Positions 1-13,348 of a stretch of 14,190 nt of DNA are shown here, in pieces. The notes beneath the pieces are model-generated. The model had not been told where the DNA came from. It did not search any database and saw only the letters and a program-made list of their open reading frames with translations. The DNA is from a virus (taxonomy: Duplodnaviria > Heunggongvirae > Uroviricota > Caudoviricetes), in IMG/VR virus record IMGVR_UViG_2534681697_000026; one strand, written 5' to 3'. Every line of letters begins with the position of its first letter. Positions within the stretch are counted from its first letter, which is position 1. The position numbers and the translations under genes are program-made.

Positions 1-723
1 GCTGTCACGGAAACCGGAAGTGACTGGTACGGCTGGGACGGCGACCGCCTGACCACGATACAGAACGACAGAACCCGCATCCAGACGATTTATCAGCCGG
101 GGAGCTTCACGCCACTCATCAGAGTTGAAACCGCCACCGGTGAGCAGGCGAAAATGCAGCGCCGCAGCCTGGCGGATGCCCTTCAGCAGTCCGGCGGCGA
201 AGACGGTGGTGATGTGGTGTTCCCGCCGGTGCTGGTGCAGATGCTCGACCGGCTGGAAAGTGAAATCCTGGCTGACCGGGTGAGTGAGGAAAGCCGCCGC
301 TGGCTGGCATCGTGCGGCCTGACGGTGGAGCAGATGCAAAACCAGATGGACCCGGTGTACACGCCGGCGCGAAAAATCCACCTGTACCACTGCGACCATC
401 GCGGCCTGCCGCTGGTGCTTATCAGCACGGAAGGGGCAACAGAATGGTGCGCAGAATACGATGAGTGGGGCAACCTGCTGAATGAAGAGAACCCGCATCA
501 GCTGCAGCAGCTTATCCGCCTGCCGGGTCAGCAGTATGATGAGGAGTCCGGCCTGTATTACAACCGCCACCGCTATTATGACCCGCTGCAGGGGCGGTAT
601 ATCACTCAGGATCCGATTGGACTGAAGGGGGGATGGAATTTTTATCAGTATCCGTTGAATCCGGTTCAGTATATAGATTCAATGGGGCTGGCATCTAAAT
701 ATGGACACTTAAATAATGGCTAG
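1..723 (+). CDS. Rhs-family protein, C-terminal part of the core (5' partial at window edge; C-terminal toxin region truncated by IS2)
   Basis: Frame 1 is open from nt 1 ([17 protein letters not shown]...) and runs into the track ORF 154-723. Contains the Rhs core end signature [39 protein letters not shown]. Only 10 codons ([10 protein letters not shown]) follow before a TAG stop supplied by the first 3 nt of IS2. GC-rich compared with the rest of the window. Confidence 0.8.
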
Positions 724-811
724 ACTGGCCCCCTGAATCTCCAGACAACCAGTATCACTTAAATAAGTGATAGTCTTAATACTAGTTTTTAGACTAGTCA
801 TTGGAGTACAG

Positions 812-1177
812 ATGATTGATGTCTTAGGGCCGGAGAAACGCAGACGGCGTACCACACAGGAAAAGATCGCAATTGTTCAGCAGAGCTTTGAACCGGGGAT
901 GACGGTCTCCCTCGTTGCCCGGCAACATGGTGTAGCAGCCAGCCAGTTATTTCTCTGGCGTAAGCAATACCAGGAAGGAAGTCTTACTGCTGTGGCCGCC
1001 GGAGAACAGGTTGTTCCTGCCTCTGAACTTGCTGCCGCCATGAAGCAGATTAAAGAACTCCAGCGCCTGCTCGGCAAGAAAACGATGGAAAATGAACTCC
1101 TCAAAGAAGCCGTTGAATATGGACGGGCAAAAAAGTGGATAGCGCACGCGCCCTTATTGCCCGGGGATGGGGAGTAA
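812..1177 (+). CDS. insC: IS2 transposase OrfA (InsC), helix-turn-helix DNA-binding subunit
   Basis: Translation [41 protein letters not shown]... (121 aa); GGAG Shine-Dalgarno 7 nt upstream of ATG 812. The track ORF start at 767 is an upstream in-frame extension without an RBS. Confidence 0.85.
1129..1135 (+). other. A_AAA_AAG slippery heptamer for programmed -1 ribosomal frameshift (IS2 insC to insD)
   Basis: In the insC frame the codons read gcA AAA AAG tgg (GRAKKW); insD is in the -1 frame and begins at the same position. Classic IS3-family frameshift window. Confidence 0.6.
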
Positions 1178-2040
1178 GCTTAGTCAGCCGTTGTCTCCGG
1201 GTGTCGCGTGCGCAGTTGCACGTCATTCTCAGACGAACCGATGACTGGATGGATGGCCGCCGCAGTCGTCACACTGATGATACGGATGTGCTTCTCCGTA
1301 TACACCATGTTATCGGAGAGCTGCCCACGTATGGTTATCGTCGGGTATGGGCGCTGCTTCGCAGACAGGCAGAACTTGATGGTATGCCTGCGATCAATGC
1401 CAAACGTGTTTACCGGATCATGCGCCAGAATGCGCTGTTGCTTGAGCGAAAACCTGCTGTACCGCCATCGAAACGGGCACATACAGGCAGAGTGGCCGTG
1501 AAAGAAAGCAATCAGCGATGGTGCTCTGACGGGTTCGAGTTCTGCTGTGATAACGGAGAGAGACTGCGTGTCACGTTCGCGCTGGACTGCTGTGATCGTG
1601 AGGCACTGCACTGGGCGGTGACTACCGGCGGCTTCAACAGTGAAACAGTACAGGACGTCATGCTGGGAGCGGTGGAACGCCGCTTCGGCAACGATCTTCC
1701 GTCGTCTCCAGTGGAGTGGCTGACGGATAATGGTTCATGCTACCGGGCTAATGAAACACGCCAGTTCGCCCGGATGTTGGGACTTGAACCGAAGAACACG
1801 GCGGTGCGGAGTCCGGAGAGTAACGGAATAGCAGAGAGCTTCGTGAAAACGATAAAGCGTGACTACATCAGTATCATGCCCAAACCAGACGGGTTAACGG
1901 CAGCAAAGAACCTTGCAGAGGCGTTCGAGCATTATAACGAATGGCATCCGCATAGTGCGCTGGGTTATCGCTCGCCACGGGAATATCTGCGGCAGCGGGC
2001 TTGTAATGGGTTAAGTGATAACAGATGTCTGGAAATATAG
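1135..2040 (+). CDS. insD: IS2 transposase OrfB (InsD), DDE catalytic domain; normally made as an OrfAB fusion by -1 frameshifting
   Basis: 301-aa ORF in the -1 frame relative to insC, overlapping its 3' end; rve/DDE integrase-like sequence (…WCSDGFEF…DNGSCY…[11 protein letters not shown]…). Confidence 0.85.
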
Positions 2041-2127
2041 GGGCAAATCCACATACCGAAATGGTACTATTGAGTATTTATCCAGTAGGTTACGATGCCA
2101 TTCCACCCAACTGGTGAGGCATCAAGG

Positions 2128-2394
2128 ATGTACAGCAAATACGACGAGGCGCAGTTTCACTTGATACTTCCGCATGAACTCCACGCGAAAATTAAACAGC
2201 GTGCGAAGATGAATAACAGATCGCTGAACTCAGAGATAATTGCAGCGATTGAGGAATCATTGGATAAACAAAGCTCTGCATCAGTTTACATTGACGATGC
2301 AGAGCGTATGGCAGAACAACAATCTGATATGGTTAAGAAAATGGTTTTTGAAACGCTTAAGACCATGTATAGCAATAATAAAAAGGAAACATAG
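2128..2394 (+). CDS. mnt: Mnt-like ribbon-helix-helix (Arc/MetJ superfamily) repressor
   Basis: N-terminal RHH motif QFHLILPHELHAKIKQRAKMNNRSLNSEIIAAIEESL; C-terminal DDAERMAEQQSDMVKKMVFETLKTMY resembles the P22 Mnt tetramerisation region (…NDAERLADEQSELVKKMVFDTLKDLY…, from memory). Start chosen at ATG 2128 (GAGG 9 nt upstream) rather than the track start 2095, which has no RBS. Opposite strand to the late genes, as for P22 mnt. Confidence 0.65.
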   Translation: MYSKYDEAQFHLILPHELHAKIKQRAKMNNRSLNSEIIAAIEESLDKQSSASVYIDDAERMAEQQSDMVKKMVFETLKTMYSNNKKET

Positions 2395-2464
2395 AAATCT
2401 AGTTTCCGGCTAAAATGGCATTGCCTTCATGATATCCTGTGAAAAACTAAGGAGAGTTAACCAT

Positions 2465-2689
2465 ATGAAAAAATCACTGTTAATTATCCCGCTTCTGCTG
2501 GTTGGATGCGCAAAAGTAAGTGACTATCAAGCAAGTTGCGAACAACGCTATCAAAAGCTTAGCGATATGGCTAATTGCCTTGATGCCAGTGTGAAGAACG
2601 ACTCACGCATGGCATCAGCACCAACACCTAAGCTGTATGTCCTTGCTGCAAAGATGCTCGGGCAAGGTGTCGATGAAGGCAAGACTTGA
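2465..2689 (+). CDS. small secreted lipoprotein (74 aa precursor)
   Basis: AAGGAG Shine-Dalgarno 9 nt upstream of ATG 2465; signal peptide plus lipobox MKKSLLIIPLLLVG|C; mature part about 55 aa with two further Cys. Track ORF 2429-2689 starts 12 codons earlier without an RBS. Confidence 0.55.
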   Translation: MKKSLLIIPLLLVGCAKVSDYQASCEQRYQKLSDMANCLDASVKNDSRMASAPTPKLYVLAAKMLGQGVDEGKT

Positions 2690-2930
2690 GCTTCAGAATC
2701 TTTATGTTCAATTACAAAGCCAAGAACAAGCCCAACAAATAGCACAAAGCCAAGCATTCCAGCAGGCTTTATTGAATTACCAGGCTGTAAACACAATGCA
2801 AGCGATCGAGCAAAAAGCGCGCCAGCCTGTTATAACTCAACCTTACCCAACACGCGTTGACACATATACAAACTGCAATTCAGGATTTGGAAACACGGTA
2901 ACATGCAACAGTAGCAGTAATATCAGGTAG
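2673..2930 (+). CDS. Gln-rich hypothetical protein (85 aa) with predicted coiled-coil-like N-terminus and Cys/Asn/Thr-rich C-terminus
   Basis: ORF overlapping the lipoprotein 3' end in another frame; AAGG 5 nt upstream of ATG 2673; strongly biased composition (QLQSQEQAQQIAQSQAFQQALLNYQ). Could instead be the continuation of the lipoprotein gene after a frameshift. Confidence 0.4.
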   Translation: MKARLELQNLYVQLQSQEQAQQIAQSQAFQQALLNYQAVNTMQAIEQKARQPVITQPYPTRVDTYTNCNSGFGNTVTCNSSSNIR

Positions 2931-2944
2931 TTATATCTTATCTT

Positions 2945-4792
2945 TTATTGCTGTTCTGCTGTAATTTGGCTTGAAAGTATAGGGCGTATCGCATTTGCAG
3001 CATTATTTAGCGCTCTTTCATAAGCTGGCGTTCCAGTTTTAGTGTTTGCCAGACGTAAGAGAGCATTCCTTGCTGCTTTGGACTCATACAAGCGCATCAT
3101 TGCACCAAAACCAGCCTCAAGCCCCATTGATACGCCAAGGGTCGCAGTTGCGCCAATCGTCCTTATCCTGTTGGCTTGCGATTGCCCCGTCTGAGTTACT
3201 ACATTTGCGGTGTCTGACCTTGCTGTTTGCTGTAGAACTTCATGAAGAGCATCAAGCTCTTTCATGTGCTTTCCAGAAAAAATAGTGTTGTAAATTTCAC
3301 CGCCTGACTGAGATTTCAGCTTATTAACTTCAGTGATGAACTTGGCTGGAGAGTCCCCGGCCTTTTCCGCTATTTTGCTGACGTAAGCTGCACGCATAGC
3401 ATCTTTCCCCTTATCATCCAGTGCGCTCCAGATTCGTTTCACGTCAGATGGTTTTCTGCTTAATACAACGGTATTTATAAGTTCAGGACTGGCTTCACTG
3501 CTTGCCTTGTTGAGCTTGTTAGCAATGTTTTTATTAAGCACCTTATTATAAACGTTTGCATAATCGGAATTTGCTTTAAGGTATTTTGCTGCGTCTGATG
3601 CACCGAGGTTTTTAGCAACTGCGTTACGAAGGTCTTTTGACATTGCATTCTCTACCATATTGGTAGCTGCTTTTGCCTGGTTGGGGAAGACCATAGCATC
3701 TCCCTGAACATTAGATCTAAATGCTGTTCTGTGCTGACGCAAGAGATCAAACGTAACATCCAAATCAGTTGCAGGGTTTGCTAATTCTTCACGTAGGTTA
3801 CGCAAGGATGTAAGCAGGCTTTGATTGGCAGACGTCCCAAGCCGTTCCTGTCTTGCGATCGCTGTATTCAGAGCATTCATGGTATTTGTGGTATCAACTG
3901 CGGCATTACCCATTTTATTGGTGACGTCATTGATAACAGCGCCAGCGGCATCCTTCCGCCCCCTTAACGTGGTGGTCAGAGATTTCACCACATCATCAGG
4001 GTTGTACTCACCAAAACGGTCAAAATAATTACTTACCAGCTTACTACGCGTTGCATATTGCTCCGCTCGCTTTGAGCCTGTCCCGAGCAAAGCCCCCTCG
4101 GCATCCTGAGTAAGGCCGCGAGTGAAAGCATTTTTCGGCGGGATAACATCAGATGTCATTGGTGTCACGCCCATCGATTCTGATGTGGCAATTTTCTTCG
4201 CCACTTCTGGCGCAATATCACCTTTTATAGCCGTTATTCCACGCCCTATTCCCTTTGCTGCTGCGGAAAGAACACCCTGAGCGGCAAGGTTAACTCCGGC
4301 ATTTTTAGCTGCATTTTGTGCGAAATCGCCTTTCTGATTTGCGGCCTCTGCCAGTGATCCAATAGCCATGCTTCCTGCCGTTCCAACTCCTGGAACTAAA
4401 TACCCACCAATTGTTTCACCGGCTTGCGCGTAGGTGTCTGTCGGTCTGTCTACTGGACGATAAACATCATCCAAAACCTTGGGTCCACCAAGCCCCTGAC
4501 TGATTGCATTAATCAGACTTGCGCCGCCCTGCAATACGTCAAATGGTATGTTTACCAGACCACGACCAGCCTGCTCTGCAATTTGCCCTGCACTTTGCCC
4601 GCCTGTGAGCCAATCGCCAGCTTGTTGCATCAATGATGGTTCTTCACGTGCTGGTTCATTATTGGCCTGATTAACTGTTTGTTGCTGAACAGCCTGACCA
4701 GCAAAATACTCATCAATGGCGGTGCCAATATCTTCCATGCTCGTACCATCAGGGAAGGTAAATGTCTTACCGTTTGCAGTTACTTTCATCAT
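2945..4792 (-). CDS. P22 gp16-like ejection (E) protein, 615 aa
   Basis: Last gene of the virion operon, length close to P22 gp16 (609 aa), Ala/Gly/Asn-rich low-complexity composition typical of ejection proteins; start overlaps the stop of the upstream gene by 4 nt (ATGA coupling). Confidence 0.75.
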
Positions 4793-6255
4793 TCCACCGT
4801 AAATTGAATGCCTGATTTTGAGGTATATGATCCGGATTGACTCTGCTGCTGTTGGGTATTTGCCGGTTGTTGGCTATTGCTCTGTTGTTGACTATTTGCA
4901 GCACTTGAAACCACCAAAGCATCATAAACGCGACCAGACTGACCACGTAATGAGTTATATTGGCCCTGCATTTTTCGCATTTTTGTTTCAGTAGCAGCCT
5001 TGGAATCACCGGGCTGAGGCAGGTACATTTTGGAATACTCCTGCATCTCTGGCAGAGTAATTGCTGCACCTGTTTCTGGGCGCAAAATTGCATACAAGGC
5101 GTCTCTCGCATTTACCATATATTGCTGCTCCGCTGGTGATAGGCTTAAATTTGCAATAGTCCCATCACCAAGAGAGCGATTTATTAATGCAACTCGCTTA
5201 GGGTCAATGCTTTTACTAAGCTGATTCATTGAGTCCATTGAATCTTTTAATCGCAAAGCAAATCCTGCCGCCTTCTTGGAACCCTCATTAGCCTTATCTA
5301 TGATGCTTTGCGCTTGTGGCAAGCTAATTGGTTTAATGCCATCACCAGATATAGGTTGGTTTAGTTTTCCGGCTTCCTCGCTGCCATCGGTGTAATACTT
5401 AGTTACCGAGCCATCAGGATTGGTTTCAACCTTAAGTAATTTCTTAGCATTGGGATTAATTCCCGCCGCTGCCGCAAATGCCGCTGCACCATCTGGATCC
5501 GCCTTTAACATTTGCGCGTACTGATTGTAATTCTGCATTGCGGCTGTTGGTGCATATGCTGACGTTAACGCATTTGCTCGGCTAATATCCTGCCCTCTCG
5601 CCTGAAGTGCTTCTCCAGCCTGATTGCTGCGGATTGTCTCTGCCAGTCTGCCTCGGTCAATCTCACGACCAGCCATCTTGTCCTGAACATTGAAGTAATC
5701 AATCGGACCAAGAGCAGCCATTCCAAGGTGATCAACAAACTCACCAAATCCTGAAGGGTTCTGCTGATACATCTGAGCAACGCTGTTAGGGTCAACACCG
5801 ACGCGAGTCAGTTCCTTGGCGTTGTTTTGCAGCCATGATTGCATTGCTTCTGGAGACGATGACGCAAGGCGTGCGCCAGCCGCTAAGGTGCCGATAGAAT
5901 TACGCTGATCTTCATCAATGAATCCCATGCCTTTACGAACGGATTCAATCTGGTCTGGATATTGAGTAGCCAACTGACGCAAAGCACCGCGATCACCAGA
6001 CGCATAAGCATTAGCGTATGCCTGCTGAAATTCTTTCTGCCGCTGAGCCTGCTTTTCCTGCTGAAACCCCCCCGCAATACCTGAAAGGCCTTGCAAAGCA
6101 GTCAGCCCAACATTGTTAGCGCCTGAACGCTCAATATCATTGTTCTGCCTGATAAGCTGAAGCGTATTGCCGATGTCATTTACGCTCGGAGCGTTTGAGT
6201 TGACGCCGCCGATACCAGCCAACAATCCGCCATTTGATCCTTGCCAAGTAGCCAT
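4789..6255 (-). CDS. P22 gp20-like ejection (E) protein, 488 aa
   Basis: Position between gp7 and gp16 homologs, size close to P22 gp20 (471 aa); AAGGGG RBS 8 nt upstream; Gln/Ala-rich. Confidence 0.75.
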
Positions 6256-6264
6256 GATTACCCC

Positions 6265-6418
6265 TTAAAACAACGAACCAAGCAATCCGATACCAGCACC
6301 AATGCCAGCGCCCCAAGGTGTTGATGTTCCCAAAAGGCTGGCAAGACCTGCACCGGCAATCGCACCAGACGTTCCGCCACTAATTGCAGTCTGAAGACTT
6401 GATGGTTTATTGGCATTA
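6265..6418 (-). pseudogene. 3' fragment of P22 gp7-like ejection protein gene, separated from its 5' part by an IS insertion
   Basis: Reverse-strand frame reads (A)NANKPSSLQTAISGGTSGAIAGAGLASLLGTSTPWGAGIGAGIGLLGSLF-stop, in frame with the 5' fragment when the IS and one TA are removed; stop lies 9 nt upstream of the gp20 start. Confidence 0.7.
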
Positions 6419-6429
6419 GGCTGTGTCCC

Positions 6430-6945
6430 TTAATTACGTAAGCGTTGATAAAAGAGTCGGATGCAGCCCAGTTTCACCATCGCCAGGTAATTTCTCGCCG
6501 TTTTGTCGTAACGCGTGGCGATGCGGCGATATTCTTTCAGCCGCCCAAAGCACCGTTCAACGACATTACGATTGCAGTACGCATCACGATCAAGCTGTGC
6601 ACGTCCATCCGATGCCATTTTCTCATTTGACTTTCGGGGGATTACTGCCTTTATACCGTTATTTTTCAGCTCGTTGCGCAATGCGCACCCTGAATACGCT
6701 TTATCAGCCAGTACCGCATGTCCACGGCGTTTCATGCTGCCGTTCTGACGCTGAACGCCAATCCCGTCCAGAAGTCGTTGCGCGAACTGGCTTTCATGAG
6801 CTTGTCCGGGGCTTAGCACGATATTTAACGGGAGGCCACTTCCGTCTGTTGCCAGATGGATTTTGGTGCCAAAACCGCCGCGAGAGCGACCCAGCCCATT
6901 ATCTCCGTCGATATCGGGATGTTTTTTTGAGCACCGGCGGCACAT
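6430..6945 (-). CDS. IS5-family transposase OrfB (DDE catalytic part), accessed by -1 frameshift from OrfA
   Basis: Acidic/conserved motifs DIDGDNG, LADKAYSG and NVVERCFGRLKEYRRIATRYDK, consistent with a DDE transposase; overlaps orfA in the -1 frame across an A7C run (plus-strand gtttttttgag at about 6921-6931). Confidence 0.8.
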   Translation of the reverse strand: MCRRCSKKHPDIDGDNGLGRSRGGFGTKIHLATDGSGLPLNIVLSPGQAHESQFAQRLLDGIGVQRQNGSMKRRGHAVLADKAYSGCALRNELKNNGIKAVIPRKSNEKMASDGRAQLDRDAYCNRNVVERCFGRLKEYRRIATRYDKTARNYLAMVKLGCIRLFYQRLRN

Positions 6946-7274
6946 TTCAGCGCCCGGATATTACTGCCATCCAGCGCGGTGGCAGACCAGTCAATAAAGC
7001 CGTTTGCATCAAGTAGCGAAAGCAACCTGTTGAAAATAATATTAATCACGCCTGACTTTGACCATCGGTTAAAGCGGTTATAAACAGTTTTCCATGACCC
7101 ATATCGTTCGGGTAAATCGCGCCATGGTGCACCGGAACATAACACCCAGAACATGCCATTGATGATTTTACGGTGCTCAGCCCATGGGCGTCCGGCCCGT
7201 GGTGTGGCGGGTTCAGGAGGTAACAGGGGCTTGATGATGGTCCATGCCTCATCGGGAAGGTCGTAGCGAGCCAT
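6825..7274 (-). CDS. IS5-family transposase OrfA (N-terminal DNA-binding part)
   Basis: MARYDLPDEAWTIIKPLLPP… N-terminus typical of two-ORF IS5-family transposases; starts 60 nt inside the IS end. Confidence 0.8.
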   Translation of the reverse strand: MARYDLPDEAWTIIKPLLPPEPATPRAGRPWAEHRKIINGMFWVLCSGAPWRDLPERYGSWKTVYNRFNRWSKSGVINIIFNRLLSLLDANGFIDWSATALDGSNIRALKCAAGAQKNIPISTEIMGWVALAAVLAPKSIWQQTEVASR

Positions 7275-7334
7275 AGTTCAATATGTTGTGTAAACAGACA
7301 GTTACTATAGCTCAGATGATTAAGGGACACAGCC

Positions 7335-7872
7335 TAGCAGCGGCAAGAGCTGCGCTTTGCTGTGCAATGCTGCTCATGTTGTTGGCGTACGTCTGCCCGG
7401 CGTTTGCCTGACCTTGAAGTGCACCAAGCCCAACGTTTGCCAGATTGTTGTAATTGCTCATCTGGTTTGATAACCAAGACTGACCGAGAGTAGGCGCGAT
7501 CGTAGCCAGTTGATTGCTTGTGGCTGTCGAACCAAGTCCACCCGTCGCCTCCGCAGCAGCAAGACTCTGGTAACGAGCCTGACCTGCAAGGTCTTTATAC
7601 TGCTGAGAGTTGTAATACTGATTAAGTGCCTGCCCCTGACCTTCTAAACTGGAAAGGTTCTGAAGCTGGTTAACATACTGCTCCGCAAGAGGCGTGAACG
7701 GAGCAAGGTTTTTCATGATCGTCTGCCACTGCTGATTTTGCAGGTCTGCGGCATACTTCTGAGCTTCTGCTGCATACTTTGCGCTTTTATCGGAGCCACC
7801 TTTCCCGCCTTTTTCAGGGCAATAAGGTTCCTCGCCGCGCAGTTTTCTGCCCAGCTTAAATGCATATAACAT
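7335..7872 (-). pseudogene. 5' fragment of P22 gp7-like ejection protein gene, interrupted by IS copy A
   Basis: N-terminus MLYAFKLGRKLRGEEPYCPEKGGKGG… in the position expected for gp7, immediately downstream of gp14; the track ORF 7312-7872 reads through into the IS end and stops there. With the 3' fragment it reconstitutes 229 codons. Confidence 0.75.
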
Positions 7873-7874
7873 AG

Positions 7875-8333
7875 CTATCTCCCGTGATTCAGGAAGTCGA
7901 TTAGTTCTTCGCGTGTGGCGCTGTAAAACGTCACGTCATCCACGCCTTTAAAGTATTTCTTGATGGTTCCGACACGCTTAAGGCCAATCATTGCGCAGTA
8001 CATCTGCCCGTGGCGGAATTTGCGTGCAGCGAACGATGTGACACACTGAACGGTGGTGTTAGTCAGAATGTATCGCCAGAACGCCAGCCCGATTTCCTTG
8101 CTGAAGCCGCGAATCTCTGGCAGGTACATGGCGTGGCAATCGAATGTCAGCGGCTGAATCTCCTGATAGTAAACAATGCCGCCGAACTGCCCATGCACGT
8201 TAACCTCAAAGTAACGGCATTCAGGCTTGTAGTCGTATCCATCGCCGTTGTTGCTCCCGGCGATAATGTCAGGGTGATTTCCTACTGCTTCGATCAGGTC
8301 GATGTTTCGCGTTGGTTTGAACTGAATCATCAC
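7875..8333 (-). CDS. P22 gp14-like protein (assigned by position), 152 aa
   Basis: Sits between the tail needle and gp7 homologs with 4-nt ATGA overlaps on both sides, as in the P22 virion operon; I cannot confirm the sequence itself from memory. Confidence 0.55.
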
Positions 8334-9178
8334 TGCTCCGCGATTATCTTGATGGTTGTGGCAGTAAACGCCGCACCATTTGACTGAATGGTTAACGTGC
8401 TGCCATTTGTGACAAGAAAGCCGTCTTTATCCACGCTGAAGAACGTAGCTAACAAGATGTTATCGGTTGTTGTCGCCGCATTACGACTGCTGACCAACGT
8501 GTCAGGAACAGAGCCGGAAAAGGTTAGCTGCATTGACCTGTTTGCGGTTCCACTGGGCCACGTCCCGACAATCGACAACTTGAAGAACAAGGTTTTGTTC
8601 TCGTTGAACACAACCATCTTGTTGTTAACGGTGTCGAAGAATGGTGCCAACGAGCCGGATGACGGCGTGAGCGTTTTCAGCAGGCTAACAAGGTTAGTCG
8701 GCGCTGTCGGGATGGTTACAGATACGCCAGAGTAAACAACCTCTGACTTCTTGCGAGTAGTGGCATACTCCAGAGCATCGATGCGCGTTTCATGGTCTGA
8801 AAGCGTGTTTTGAATGGCGACAACTTCATCAGTCAGATAATCAATATCGTTTTCTGCTGTCGTTAATCGCGAATCAAGGCCGACTATCGCTGCTTCTGCG
8901 TTAGTGATCCTTGTTTCGTGGTCCTGTATCTTCGCTTCAGCTGATGCCAGTCGAATTTCGTGATCAACCAGAATCACATCCTGCTCATCGTTCCTTACCT
9001 GCGCGTCATAAGCGCCCTGTCCGGACTCGTTGGCCTTATTCACCACGTTACCAACATCAGTACCCTGTGCGATAACGTAAAGCAGATACGACTGCGAGAA
9101 GATATTGCGTGGAAGGATTGATGTATCGAGCCGCGTCGCCTGAACAATAACAGGTGTATTGAGATTCGAATCCGCCAT
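8330..9178 (-). CDS. tail needle protein (P22 gp26 family) with an extended C-terminal domain, 282 aa
   Basis: N-terminal [43 protein letters not shown]… matches the conserved gp26 N-terminal region followed by coiled-coil heptads; C-terminal about 130 aa is Thr/Ser/Asn-rich and unlike the short P22 tip. Confidence 0.8.
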
Positions 9179-10596
9179 TACTCAATCCTTATCTGAGTGC
9201 CAGACAGAGTGACAGGTGACTTCGTGATAATGCGCAATTTGAAGCCGACATTTTTCCTGATGCGCCCTACTCGCTTCCACAAAACGCGTTTGTCGTAAAC
9301 GAACGGTTCATTCTGCTCAATCATCTGCTCACGTCCGTAATTGATGCCGTCAGTGGTTGCAGAGAGGAACAGGCGGTCGGCGTACTGAGCTACGCCAGTG
9401 GATGATTCCACCTCCAGATCGAAGCATCTGGCGTTATCCGCTTTGAACAACGGAGTAAACAGCAGGTGTTCCTGCTGCTTGTCGTACTGGCTGCTGATAT
9501 CGAACTGCAGTTTCCCGGTCACGGATTCCAGCTTATCGCCGCACGTTATCTGATTGCCTTCGTAAATGAAGTCGATAGCGCGGTACACATCGTCATACAG
9601 GCCTGTTTTCAGCACACACCATTGCGGACCATTGGCGCTTGAAGATGCATCGTACACAAGGACGTGACGCGGAAGATGGATAATCAGCAACTCATGCGCA
9701 TCAAATCGCAGAGACTCCATCACACCATCAGCCAGTTCATCAGCAGTGTAGGAGCGAAGTATTTTCTCAATGCTCGCGCTGGCGATTGGTGATACCTGAC
9801 CGGAACCGATGATGTACACAGACGGCGCACCCGTTGCCGGGTTGCTGATGAAAGCATAGGAATCAGCAAACGGCGTTTTGCAGTAAGTCCCGGCGATGCC
9901 TTTTTGCACCATCAATGATGGCTGGGCGACATACAAAGCAGCACCAACGGTGGTTGCACCAGTCAGGGAGAAATATTCAATCGTCGATGAACCAAAGCAG
10001 ACGATGAAGTCTCGCCATGTCCCTATGCCGATGATGCCATCAGGCTGAGATTCTGCGCGATATTGTGCGCTGTATCGGTCAGGATGTGATTCGTCTTCAA
10101 GGTCAGTGATAAACCATGAATCAGTACCGTCTTTTGACCACGCATAACGCCCACGTAAGCGCGTAATGTCACGAACCGAACCTAGCTCATACTGAGTGAA
10201 TCCGCTATCTGTAGGCCAGTTTGAGACGGTTTTAATCGTGCCATCATAGCGATACTCGACCAGTTGACCATTAACACCTATCGCCTGAGATGTACGACCA
10301 TGCGCCATTGATACGCGACCACTTCCGGCGACGTCACCGACTTCACTTTCTCCTTTGTACAGCTTGCCACCACACACACGATAAACAGCATTCTGCGCCA
10401 TGTTGTACTCGACGCCGCGAGATACACCGTTCACATCAGAGCGTTTGGCAATGCCAGGGAATGAGCGAAGATATCCGCTGCTGTTCAGGATTTCTTTGGG
10501 TGTAGCCAGCATATTCACTGGCAGATAGTCGATATAGTCGGCGTTTCGAAAGTCTTTGCCGACACCTTTCATAAGCGGAAGTTGCTGAATAGGCAT
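9178..10596 (-). CDS. P22 gp10-like tail accessory (portal-closure/tail hub) protein, 472 aa
   Basis: Same length as P22 gp10 and correct position between gp4 and gp26; stop overlaps the tail needle start (ATGA). Confidence 0.85.
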
Positions 10597-10604
10597 TTAT
10601 TCAC

Positions 10605-11087
10605 CTATGAATTTGGGATATCGCCATCAATCAGAGGGAGATCGCCTGGATAATATCGGTCAGATGTGAACACGTCATATTTATTACCCTGTCCTACAGG
10701 AAAATCTCCACGTCGTCGCATTGAAGGAACAACCAGAGTGTCGGTCATCAAGGCATCATATGAGCGTTGGGCGTTACTGAGAACTTGCGGAGTTGGCTCA
10801 AGGCTGTAATCAGATAGCATTCTCAGCAATAACTGATAGCCTACTGCGTGTTTGTATTTTCTTGGAAGACCTGACTCATCATCTGGTAATGGCTGCTCAT
10901 CTCCAGTTGCGAAAGCGTAACCAATGTCGCCGGGGTTAATCATCCACTCGGACATCATATCTTCCAGATCATTTACACCATCTTCAATTGATTGCGGCTC
11001 AACATCAGTCAGCGATGCATTAGAAGCAATAGCAAACTTACGAAGCGCAAAAAGGACGATCTCACCCTTTGTCAGTACTGTTGCCAT
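10605..11087 (-). CDS. P22 gp4-like head-to-tail adaptor / tail accessory protein, 160 aa
   Basis: N-terminal [42 protein letters not shown] resembles P22 gp4 (…[34 protein letters not shown]…, from memory); first gene after the coat-like gene. Confidence 0.85.
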   Translation of the reverse strand: [160 protein letters not shown]

Positions 11088-11247
11088 TGTCTGCCGCCTT
11101 ACGACCTCGCTTACTGGTCGGTTTCAATTCATCAACTGAGGCAACAAAGCCCAACTTTTCGAAAAACTGGAAGTCTTTTTCTGCGATAACGGCCTGTACA
11201 TGCCCGGATTCGTTATCTGCGGCAAGGAATACACTCATGCGATCCAT
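11062..11247 (-). CDS. hypothetical small protein (61 aa) between coat-like gene and gp4
   Basis: Good RBS (TAAGGAAACAAT-ATG) directly after the coat-gene terminator; overlaps the gp4 start by 26 nt in another frame. No recognisable motif. Confidence 0.3.
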   Translation of the reverse strand: MDRMSVFLAADNESGHVQAVIAEKDFQFFEKLGFVASVDELKPTSKRGRKAADNGNSTDKG

Positions 11248-11257
11248 ATTGTTTCCT

Positions 11258-11284
11258 TAAAACATAAAAGGGGCGTAAGCCCCT
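11258..11284 (-). terminator. rho-independent terminator/attenuator hairpin after the coat-like gene
   Basis: Minus-strand sense: GGGGC-ttac-GCCCC followed by TTTTATGTTTT, starting 6 nt after the coat-like gene stop. Confidence 0.55.
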
Positions 11285-11289
11285 TGTTA

Positions 11290-12306
11290 TTACGGATTAC
11301 CGAAGAACTGACCGCCCATGTGAGGGTTAAAGCACACATATGCAGGCAGTAAGTCAAAGCGCATTTTTTGCACGTTGGCATCGCCATCTGCGTATTTATG
11401 TACGCGGATGGAGAAACCTTCATATGTTGCAACAGCAGAATCAATACTGTGCAGTTTCGGCAGTGGGATAGAGCCAAGTCCACAGAAGAACTTGTTATAG
11501 AACAGGTTTGGCTTCATTGTCTGGCTAGCAGTGCCTACTACAGATACGGCATCGTTTGCCGCTACCTGACGACTTACAGAGTTGTACTGCGGGTTTGTAG
11601 TGTCATAAATCGGAACACCAGAAAGCGTAACCGTCACATTGCCACTGCTGTCTGAATTAGCATCAGCAGTAACCGTTGCAGTGAAGCTAATTGGTGTGGC
11701 TCCGTTATACAACGCCTGTTTGGTCTGCTGTTGCAGCCAGTAGGTATTGGTGAATTTAACCTGATCACCAGCTTTCAGAAAACCTGTAACGCTGGCTGTC
11801 GCTCCGGTCAATGTTACAGTGAACTGGTATGAGTCTTTAACTGCGTTATAGGTAACAGTTGGCTGTGTTTTGACTGTCAGTGTTCCGCCAAATGCCCCCT
11901 GCGTACGAGAGGCAAGCCCATTAGACATCAGTGCGCGAATGCCGCCAAAATTGGTTGGGATCTGTGCATTCTCCCATGCAGTACGAACCAATTGATCTGA
12001 AGCGTGCAAACCAGTCTGCGCATCAGCAAGTCGCTGTGCAGACCATGGATCCATTACAGCATAGTTTTCACCTTCATTAACGCCGAGGTCTTTCAGGAAA
12101 GATGCCGTCTGCGCAACATCAGACCATTTGGTGATTGGAGTATTGGGGCTACCAAGTGACAACGCACCGTTATTCATCATGAAGTGAGCAAGCTCTGTTT
12201 CAAGGTCGGTAACGATTCGCTGGCGAACCGGCGCGAGAATTTCTTCCAGTTGGTTAAGCTTGATCGCTTCCTCCAGTTGCTGATATTCAACAACAACAGT
12301 GATGTA
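11290..12306 (-). pseudogene. major capsid (coat) protein-like gene with Ig/telokin-like insertion, 5' end disrupted by IS copy B
   Basis: Track ORF 11290-12180 (296 aa) has no RBS at its Met, and the frame stays open for 42 more codons upstream, right up to the IS boundary. Position immediately upstream of gp4; C-terminal part has beta-rich Thr/Val repeats and a layout reminiscent of the P22 coat C-terminal half. Confidence 0.5.
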
Positions 12307-12366
12307 GGCTGTGTCCCTTAATCATCTGAGCTATAGTAACTGTCTGTTTACACAACATATTGAACT

Positions 12367-12816
12367 ATGGCTCGCTACGACCTTCCCGATGAGGCATGGA
12401 CCATCATCAAGCCCCTGTTACCTCCTGAACCCGCCACACCACGGGCCGGACGCCCATGGGCTGAGCACCGTAAAATCATAAATGGCATGTTCTGGGTGTT
12501 ATGTTCCGGTGCACCATGGCGCGATTTACCCGAACGATATGGGTCATGGAAAACTGTTTATAACCGCTTTAACCGATGGTCAAAGTCAGGCGTGATTAAT
12601 ATTATTTTCAACAGGTTGCTTTCGCTACTTGATGCAAACGGCTTTATTGACTGGTCTGCCACCGCGCTGGATGGCAGTAATATCCGGGCGCTGAAATGTG
12701 CCGCCGGTGCTCAAAAAAACATCCCGATATCGACGGAGATAATGGGCTGGGTCGCTCTCGCGGCGGTTTTGGCACCAAAATCCATCTGGCAACAGACGGA
12801 AGTGGCCTCCCGTTAA
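12367..12816 (+). CDS. IS5-family transposase OrfA
   Basis: Identical 149-aa product to copy A orfA. Confidence 0.8.
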   Translation: MARYDLPDEAWTIIKPLLPPEPATPRAGRPWAEHRKIINGMFWVLCSGAPWRDLPERYGSWKTVYNRFNRWSKSGVINIIFNRLLSLLDANGFIDWSATALDGSNIRALKCAAGAQKNIPISTEIMGWVALAAVLAPKSIWQQTEVASR

Positions 12817-13211
12817 ATATCGTGCTAAGCCCCGGACAAGCTCATGAAAGCCAGTTCGCGCAACGACTTCTGGACGGGATTGGCGTTCAGCGTCAGAACG
12901 GCAGCATGAAACGCCGTGGACATGCGGTACTGGCTGATAAAGCGTATTCAGGGCGCGCATTGCGCAACGAGCTGAAAAATAACGGTATAAAGGCAGTAAT
13001 CCCCCGAAAGTCAAATGAGAAAATGGCATCGGATGGACGTGCACAGCTTGATCGTGATGCGTACCGCAATCGTAATGTCGTTGAACGGTGCTTTGGGCGG
13101 CTGAAAGAATATCGCCGCATCGCCACGCGTTACGACAAAACGGCGAGAAATTACCTGGCGATGGTGAAACTGGGCTGCATCCGACTCTTTTATCAACGCT
13201 TACGTAATTAA
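12696..13211 (+). CDS. IS5-family transposase OrfB (DDE domain)
   Basis: 171-aa product, 2 aa different from copy A orfB; -1 frame relative to orfA. Confidence 0.8.
   Translation: MCRRCSKKHPDIDGDNGLGRSRGGFGTKIHLATDGSGLPLNIVLSPGQAHESQFAQRLLDGIGVQRQNGSMKRRGHAVLADKAYSGRALRNELKNNGIKAVIPRKSNEKMASDGRAQLDRDAYRNRNVVERCFGRLKEYRRIATRYDKTARNYLAMVKLGCIRLFYQRLRN
12714..12720 (+). other. A_AAA_AAC slippery heptamer, predicted programmed -1 frameshift site joining OrfA and OrfB
   Basis: orfA frame reads gcT CAA AAA AAC atc; shifting -1 at the A7 run gives …AQKK-HPDIDGDNG… and a fusion transposase of about 280 aa. Confidence 0.55.
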
Positions 13212-13348
13212 GGGACACAGCCTAGATGCCGCTATCAGATCCTCCACTTTGAAAGCGAAGCTTATACATATCTTTTACATCAGCAATCTATTGTTAATCT
13301 CCAATCAATGTTACGTTGTCATCTCACTCATGCTTTGGAGGTAGTGAT

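Follow-up and report, generated by a model that had tools for sequence, protein, structure and literature searches.

The window, by which we mean the whole stretch of 14,190 nucleotides analysed here, begins with the C-terminal part of an Rhs gene, continues with a complete copy of the insertion sequence IS2 and then enters the mnt region of a defective P22-like prophage. It matches contig AERN01000049.1 (assembly GCA_000193915.2) from position 3 on with 100% identity; in a published strain table this assembly appears as Shigella boydii ATCC 9905 (PMC6397287). The same strain label is carried by the protein records EFW55272.1, 'core protein [Shigella boydii ATCC 9905]', which is the 189-residue Rhs product, and EFW55275.1, which is Mnt. 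AERN01000049.1 is part of a draft assembly and starts within the Rhs core, 722 nt to the left of IS2. Internally, it spans three IS copies, namely IS2 and two copies of a 920-bp IS, and their arrangement is the same as in the finished relative CP026875.1.

The Rhs core occupies positions 1-690 on the plus strand and runs off the start of the window, the source contig beginning 2 nt further left. Residues 126-162 of the 240-residue Rhs fragment match the Pfam family RHS (PF03527, E=1e-14). All 720 nt upstream of IS2 (1-720) align with the ybfO orphan Rhs of E. coli K-12 at 97.5% identity and with rhsC proper at 95.6%. The core boundary, which is of the PxxxxDPxGL type, is present as a DSMGL variant identical to that of K-12 ybfO. 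It is followed by the first 10 codons of a ybfO-type C-terminal tip (691-720, plus strand), the last 5 nt of which, ATGGC, correspond to the left half of a target site. The G+C content is 60.8% in the Rhs core and 37.8% in the segment 631-720. The variable toxin domain and the cognate immunity gene are missing here, since the 10 tip codons lead directly into IS2: the stop of the Rhs frame, 10 codons past ...IDSMGL, is TAG 721-723, the first three bases of the element. This arrangement, a core end followed by ten codons and a stop supplied by IS2, had been proposed in an earlier reading of the sequence alone and is confirmed in the translated frame.

On the other side, IS2 is followed by CATAC (2052-2056), and then by the mnt upstream region and the gene for an Mnt/Arc-family repressor (2057-2394, with the gene itself at 2128-2394), all on the plus strand. 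The gene product matches the Pfam families Arc (E=1e-12) and Repressor_Mnt (E=4e-12). Downstream of mnt lie P22-type gp16, gp20 and further virion genes for injection and tail. The same reading had called this side phage-derived and AT-rich, which agrees with its gene content and with a G+C content of 41.5% (2052-2950).

The ends and flanks of the IS2 copy

The element is a complete IS2 of the IS3 family, 1331 bp long, on the plus strand (721-2051), with its left inverted repeat at 721 and its right inverted repeat at 2051. It starts with tagactggcc... and ends with ...ggggcaaatcca. Its two reading frames, orfA (812-1177) and orfB (1135-2040), overlap next to an A6G slippery run (AAAAAAG) at around 1128-1134, and they encode the expected Pfam domains HTH_Tnp_1 (orfA) and HTH_21, rve and rve_3 (orfB). 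E. coli copies labelled 'IS3-like element IS2 family transposase' match it at 99.8% identity, and the IS2 at the prophage site of CP026875.1 matches it at 100%. The orfB protein is very common, its exact sequence being listed in 23,327 blocks. Mosaicism inside IS2, considered as a possible trace of recombination, was uninformative given the complete identity to the CP026875.1 copy.

The 5 bp to the left of IS2 are ATGGC (716-720), whereas those to the right are CATAC (2052-2056); they agree at only one of five positions, and there is no 5-bp duplication. The ends were fixed by base-for-base alignment with 16 other distinct full-length copies in the fetched loci, and 15 of these 16 have a perfect 5-bp duplication at exactly the same ends. 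The boundaries are therefore not in doubt, and a shift that would restore a direct repeat is ruled out, since no offset works. Thus, the claim of the sequence-only reading that this IS2 lacks a target-site duplication holds. The missing duplication concerns the history of this particular copy, not its identity as IS2.

Two target sites at one IS2

Each flank was compared with intact versions of its own site. For the right flank, the exact Mnt protein is found on 5 contigs only in a large assembly collection, including the one encoding EFW55275.1, and one of the five is the complete 5.16-Mb chromosome CP026875.1. This chromosome differs from window positions 720-12394 by 1 mismatch in 11,675 nt; moreover, a 171-residue transposase allele of the 920-bp IS is on record only for the window contig and for CP026875.1. 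Both CP026875.1 and an IMG/VR provirus (L027) read GTGATTGCATAC[IS2]CATACCGAAATGG, with a perfect CATAC duplication, of which the window retains the right-hand copy. Three related E. coli-type prophages carry the site GTGATTGCATACCGAAATGGTAC uninterrupted, and GTGATTG-CATAC-CGAAATGG is intact in the loci L001, L008 and L015. These three loci and L009 also share the context of mnt, and in the relatives the prophage sits at argW. Relatives that are intact or less damaged have mnt and the tailspike gene side by side in divergent orientation, separated by about 120 nt in which no gene is annotated. Because CP026875.1 carries the CATAC duplication and the relatives carry the empty site, the element started out as a plain insertion separating tailspike from mnt. 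The right flank is thus shown to derive from a simple IS2 insertion 50 nt upstream of the tailspike start.

The comparison with related P22-like prophages also reveals what belongs on the other side of this insertion, since CP026875.1 keeps the tailspike-side arm to the left of its CATAC-duplicated IS2. There, the start of the tailspike gene lies 50 nt away and the gene itself is cut by the 920-bp IS; beyond the tailspike remnant follow the acyltransferase gene, intS, argW and yfdC.

Three sequences carry the intact counterpart of the left flank, CACTTAAATAATGGC|GGATATGG, namely E. coli 90-3040, K-12 ybfO and a Logan read-assembly contig (DRR424344); AATA-ATGGC-GGATATGG is uninterrupted in the loci L007, L026 and L028. 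At the intact site the tip runs for about 143 more codons, and in 90-3040 and K-12 ybfC is annotated directly 3' of it. Approximately 65% of complete E. coli genomes contain this Rhs core/tip boundary region. The existence of the intact site ...AATAATGGC|GGATATGG in a ybfO-type Rhs tip points to a second IS2 insertion at this position, 30 nt into the tip, for which the expected duplication is ATGGC; the left flank of the window would be the left half of that insertion. The Rhs module resembles the ybfO orphan, which is already silent.

Each of the two flanks is half of an independently verified, distinct site that is intact elsewhere, and the single IS2 of the window appears to bear the flanks of two separate IS2 insertions.

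Origin of the join

The sequence-only reading had proposed that IS2 marks a deletion or recombination junction at which the Rhs tip and the distal end of the prophage, including ant, tailspike and attachment site, were removed. That IS2 is a junction of two unrelated loci rather than a simple insertion is borne out; a direct deletion is not. In K-12 the ybfO site (around 735,224) and argW (2,466,309) share a strand and are separated by 1.73 Mb, so that loss of the interval would take the terminus half of the chromosome and would not be viable. Moreover, the acyltransferase and YfdC alleles of the left prophage arm were looked up by exact sequence and are annotated in ATCC 9905 itself (EFW53639.1 and EFW53641.1). 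Both alleles are lineage-specific, the acyltransferase allele being found on 5 contigs and the YfdC allele on 6. Since their accessions are numbered about 1,630 before those of Rhs (EFW55272) and Mnt (EFW55275), they lie on another contig of the ATCC 9905 assembly. The integrase/attachment end of the prophage is thus separated from mnt, not lost, and the proposed removal of the distal end is contradicted both by these alleles and by the sister genome, in which the arm adjoins the same IS2. Nor was ant lost at this junction, since the prophage relatives have mnt directly beside the tailspike gene with neither arc nor ant in between.

We surveyed sequence collections for the junctions and for the two parental insertions. 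Neither the Rhs-IS2 junction nor an Rhs-to-mnt adjacency was found in 5,426 complete E. coli genomes, and no relative among these genomes joins Rhs to mnt without IS2. The left junction had no match in genome_contigs (one representative genome per species), IMG/VR or the JGI metagenomes, and the reciprocal junction IS2|ATGGCGGATATGG had none in the E. coli genomes, genome_contigs, viral_contigs or metagenome_contigs. An Rhs::IS2 parent with an ATGGC duplication was likewise absent from the 5,426 E. coli genomes, genome_contigs, IMG/VR and the JGI metagenomes, collections that exclude the other ATCC 9905 contigs (GCA_000193915.2) and the rest of CP026875.1. Of the two parental insertions, the one at the prophage site is therefore present (CP026875.1 and L027) and the one at the Rhs site is absent from the searched collections. 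At the protein level, the exact 189-residue Rhs product is found only on contigs already known. Homology searches of cluster representatives with the tailspike remnant, the tip remainder and the Rhs fragment returned no protein from the lineage and none ending in ...HLNNG, and no guessed junction or tailspike product had an exact match in the protein collection. One apparent lead, P0157, which starts with ATGGCGGAT, was ruled out, as it proved to be a contig full of indels that has no IS2.

The join of the two flanks runs through the IS2 repeat and arose either in the cell, when two IS2 copies recombined, or in the draft assembly, as a mis-join; the present data are compatible with both. We give roughly an even chance to, and favour only slightly over a mis-join, a homologous recombination of two IS2 copies in the lineage of S. 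boydii ATCC 9905. This route would start from the insertion demonstrated above, in which IS2 enters between tailspike and mnt of the defective P22-like argW prophage and duplicates CATAC, a state still present in the sister genome CP026875.1. Another IS2 would have entered the AT-rich ybfO-type tip, 30 nt in, at ...AATAATGGC|GGATATGG, severing the toxin tip and supplying the TAG stop. RecA-type homologous recombination of the two copies would produce the arrangement Rhs-ATGGC[IS2]CATAC-mnt seen in the window and, elsewhere in the chromosome, a predicted partner tailspike'-CATAC[IS2]ATGGC-tip-ybfC. Because the two loci are so far apart in K-12 order, the viable outcome would be an inversion between oppositely oriented IS2 copies and not a deletion. 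The integrase arm of the prophage would thereby have been relocated, not lost, and the Rhs tip and ybfC would probably have been relocated as well.

Recombination between IS2 copies is consistent with the exact IS2 ends lacking a duplication, as opposed to the 15 of 16 other copies that have one, and with the retention of the parental prophage insertion in L027 and in the nearly identical sister CP026875.1, which has an identical IS2. Moreover, the contig crosses three IS copies, which suggests that repeats were resolved with linking data and lends some weight to a real join, and high rates of IS-associated rearrangement have been described in Shigella (PMC8072062). These arguments for an in vivo route are weak, though not negligible. 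Against it, neither the reciprocal junction nor the Rhs-site parent turned up in the collections searched; the Rhs side amounts to no more than 722 nt, right where a draft contig ends; and the closest relative is unrecombined. In the orientation found in K-12, furthermore, the two IS2 copies would be direct repeats, so that a genuine event presupposes a previous inversion in the S. boydii lineage. A mis-join, a possibility absent from the sequence-only reading and in our view a serious one although short of an even chance, would require only that ATCC 9905 harbours two ordinary IS2 insertions, one in the Rhs tip (ATGGC) and one between tailspike and mnt (CATAC), and no cellular rearrangement at all. 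With the IS2 copies collapsed into one consensus, the short piece between the Rhs core repeat and IS2 would have been attached to the mnt flank during draft assembly or finishing. Such an error is suggested by the start of AERN01000049.1 inside the repeated Rhs core, by the identity of IS2 to the sister copy, which leaves no copy-specific markers, by the unrecombined prophage of the sister genome, by the position of the left prophage arm on another contig of the assembly, and by the fact that in K-12 orientation the join would amount to a lethal deletion. However, the same passage through three IS copies speaks for repeats resolved with linking data rather than blind joins, and many other gaps appear to have been left open by the assembly, judging from its multiple contigs of 123-235 kb.

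Two further routes are each very improbable in our estimation. An IS2-associated deletion, whether by recombination between direct IS2 copies or by adjacent deletion, would have taken out both the Rhs tip with its immunity gene and the tailspike/attachment end of the prophage. It would account for the missing duplication and for the incompleteness of both genes adjoining IS2, and only one contig is on record with the exact 392-residue protein of the tailspike remnant in the sister genome. The missing tailspike record is nevertheless explained by differing gene calls between the two annotations, as illustrated by gp16, for which one annotation gives 597 residues and the other 614 although the DNA is identical. 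More directly, deletion conflicts with the left-arm alleles annotated in ATCC 9905, with the inferred inviability of losing a 1.73-Mb interval and with prophage relatives that never had ant. The other route is a one-step intramolecular transposition, in which the prophage IS2 would hit the Rhs tip in cis, so that the IS is duplicated and the intervening DNA inverted. Each copy would then keep CATAC as its old flank and acquire ATGGC as its new one, and no prior insertion into Rhs would be needed. The pattern of old and new flanks is as predicted, though the two-step route predicts it too, and no Rhs::IS2 genome with an ATGGC duplication is found among the collections searched. IS2, however, is described as transposing through a figure-of-eight intermediate and then a minicircle that integrates (PMC3299598, PMC3219604), a route that gives simple duplicated insertions as in 15 of the 16 other copies and that makes the one-step event unlikely (PMC3299598); with present data, its products are indistinguishable from those of the two-step route.

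The functional consequences are small, because the Rhs piece resembles a silent orphan and the prophage was already wrecked by IS elements: most of its genome was lost to the 920-bp IS, and it has other lesions too. The case is a further instance of an Rhs tip and an already decaying prophage being disrupted by IS2, and it introduces no new mechanism. It does provide a caution for IS-rich Shigella genomes, in which an IS without target duplication signals a recombination breakpoint or an assembly join, and in which claims of gene loss at such junctions, be it of a toxin tip, an immunity gene or a prophage end, should be verified against the whole assembly and finished relatives.

Properly duplicated IS2 insertions in or just after Rhs tips were also observed in several E. 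coli genomes. Six such insertions are independent and fall into three loci, but the sampling was biased toward these cases and no enrichment can be claimed. It is unlikely, though conceivable, that IS2 truly prefers the change in composition where the Rhs core meets the tip, together with the AT-rich DNA of tips and immunity genes. Were this so, loss of Rhs toxin tips to IS2 would be a recurrent event, and the element would give rise to large chromosomal exchanges, one example being a viable inversion on the megabase scale that links ybfO with the argW prophage in S. boydii.

Comparison with known systems

All components of the locus are of known kinds: an IS2, a ybfO-type tip, a P22-like remnant at argW, and either an IS-bounded breakpoint or a chimeric join. 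With the hybrid-flank IS elements at rearrangement breakpoints of Shigella and E. coli, the window shares a complete IS without duplication whose flanks come from two intact sites, and a close relative that keeps one parental insertion with its duplication. Unlike in those cases, the junction lies on one draft contig, and the reciprocal junction and the second parent are unobserved. With chimeric draft joins induced by repeats, it has in common that the join goes through a 1.3-kb repeat present in multiple copies, that the unique piece at the contig end is very short and that the closest finished genome disagrees; in contrast to such joins, the contig resolves its other IS copies as the finished relative does.

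The left side corresponds to the orphan tip/immunity module ybfO-ybfC of K-12, which lies downstream of rhsC. The two are alike in their sequence over the 720 nt compared, in the ...YIDSMGL| boundary and in the drop in G+C, but in the window the tip is cut by IS2 after its 10 codons and ybfC is not adjacent. The right side recalls the P22-type immI region (mnt-arc-ant) in having an Mnt repressor with an Arc-like ribbon-helix-helix and an Mnt C-terminal domain, and differs from it in that the prophage relatives have no arc or ant between mnt and tailspike. The right side also corresponds to defective P22-like prophages at argW, the CPS-53/KplE1 site, as found in CP026875.1, E. coli GPEC87-32-644, OkiPb01684 and O26 strains. 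In the window, a fragment of Rhs replaces the tailspike/acyltransferase/intS arm to the left of IS2. Shared with these prophages are mnt, gp16, gp20, gp7, gp14, gp26, gp10, gp4, the coat genes and the ead/eag/torI end, and in CP026875.1 the positions of IS2 and of the 920-bp IS are identical to those in the window.

Erosion of the prophage by a 920-bp insertion sequence

The prophage carries two copies of a 920-bp element of the IS5 family, which are 100% identical to each other and lie in inverted orientation. One of them (window 6417-7336) is located between gp20 and gp7. The other (window 12305-13224) cuts the coat gene short near residue 124 of the Pfam profile. Since this second copy also lies directly against the prophage's ead/eag/torI end, the prophage lacks its genes for scaffold, portal, terminase, lysis, replication and immunity. 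P22-like gene order is kept between the two copies and the segment they enclose is thus not inverted. Public records annotate the element as ISSfl7-like or as 'ISSfl1 ORF2', and it is rare in E. coli, being present in 46 of 5,426 genomes.

In the sister genome CP026875.1 (L009 6470-7393) the tailspike gene is broken by a third copy of this element and has lost 433 nt relative to an intact tailspike of 664 residues. The prophage was therefore non-functional before any exchange between IS2 copies took place. Within window positions 720-12394 the two genomes differ at a single nucleotide, position 6068, where the window has C and CP026875.1 has A. Because this mismatch falls in a C-run of the gp20 gene, the exact gp20 protein of CP026875.1 is not shared by ATCC 9905. 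Moreover, the gene downstream of mnt (window 2429-2930), which in its intact form in E. coli relatives encodes a hypothetical protein of 161 residues, has suffered a 20-nt deletion near position 2679, between direct AGGCAAGA repeats, that breaks it into ORFs of 86 and 97 residues.

IS2 at Rhs tips and elsewhere

Five independent IS2 insertions, each flanked by a proper 5-bp duplication, were found inside or directly past Rhs tips of E. coli, at the rpmE/metJ (RhsF-type) and yibF (rhsA-type) loci. They occupy L002 5681-7011 (duplication GGATC), L003 6191-7521 (AGATG), L004 4726-6056 (TATTG), L005 4929-6259 (CATAT) and L006 5409-6739 (AATAT); one lies within the DPLGL codons and another 45 nt past them. 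These insertions may reflect a preference of IS2 for this AT-rich DNA, but the query biased the sampling.

In E. coli GPEC87-32-644 the same type of prophage also harbors an IS2, just past the mnt stop codon (L001 6344-7674). This copy differs from that of the window in being more divergent (95.7% identical), has a CATAG duplication and sits 345 bp away from the S. boydii site. Among the 16 copies examined, the only other IS2 that lacks a target duplication is that of CP026357.1 (L020 3587-4917), whose flanks are AAGTT and ATAAA, and which presumably marks another recombination breakpoint.

The ybfO-type tip

The ybfO-type Rhs C-terminal domain comprises 143 residues and is found in E. coli 90-3040 (L007 7129-7557) and as the tip of K-12 ybfO. 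A Pfam search with the 143 residues matched no family. Relatives at E<=1e-20 number only 24 at cluster level, and come from Escherichia, Salmonella, Phytobacter and unnamed metagenome sequences. The domain is an uncharacterised toxin-like tip that is paired with ybfC.
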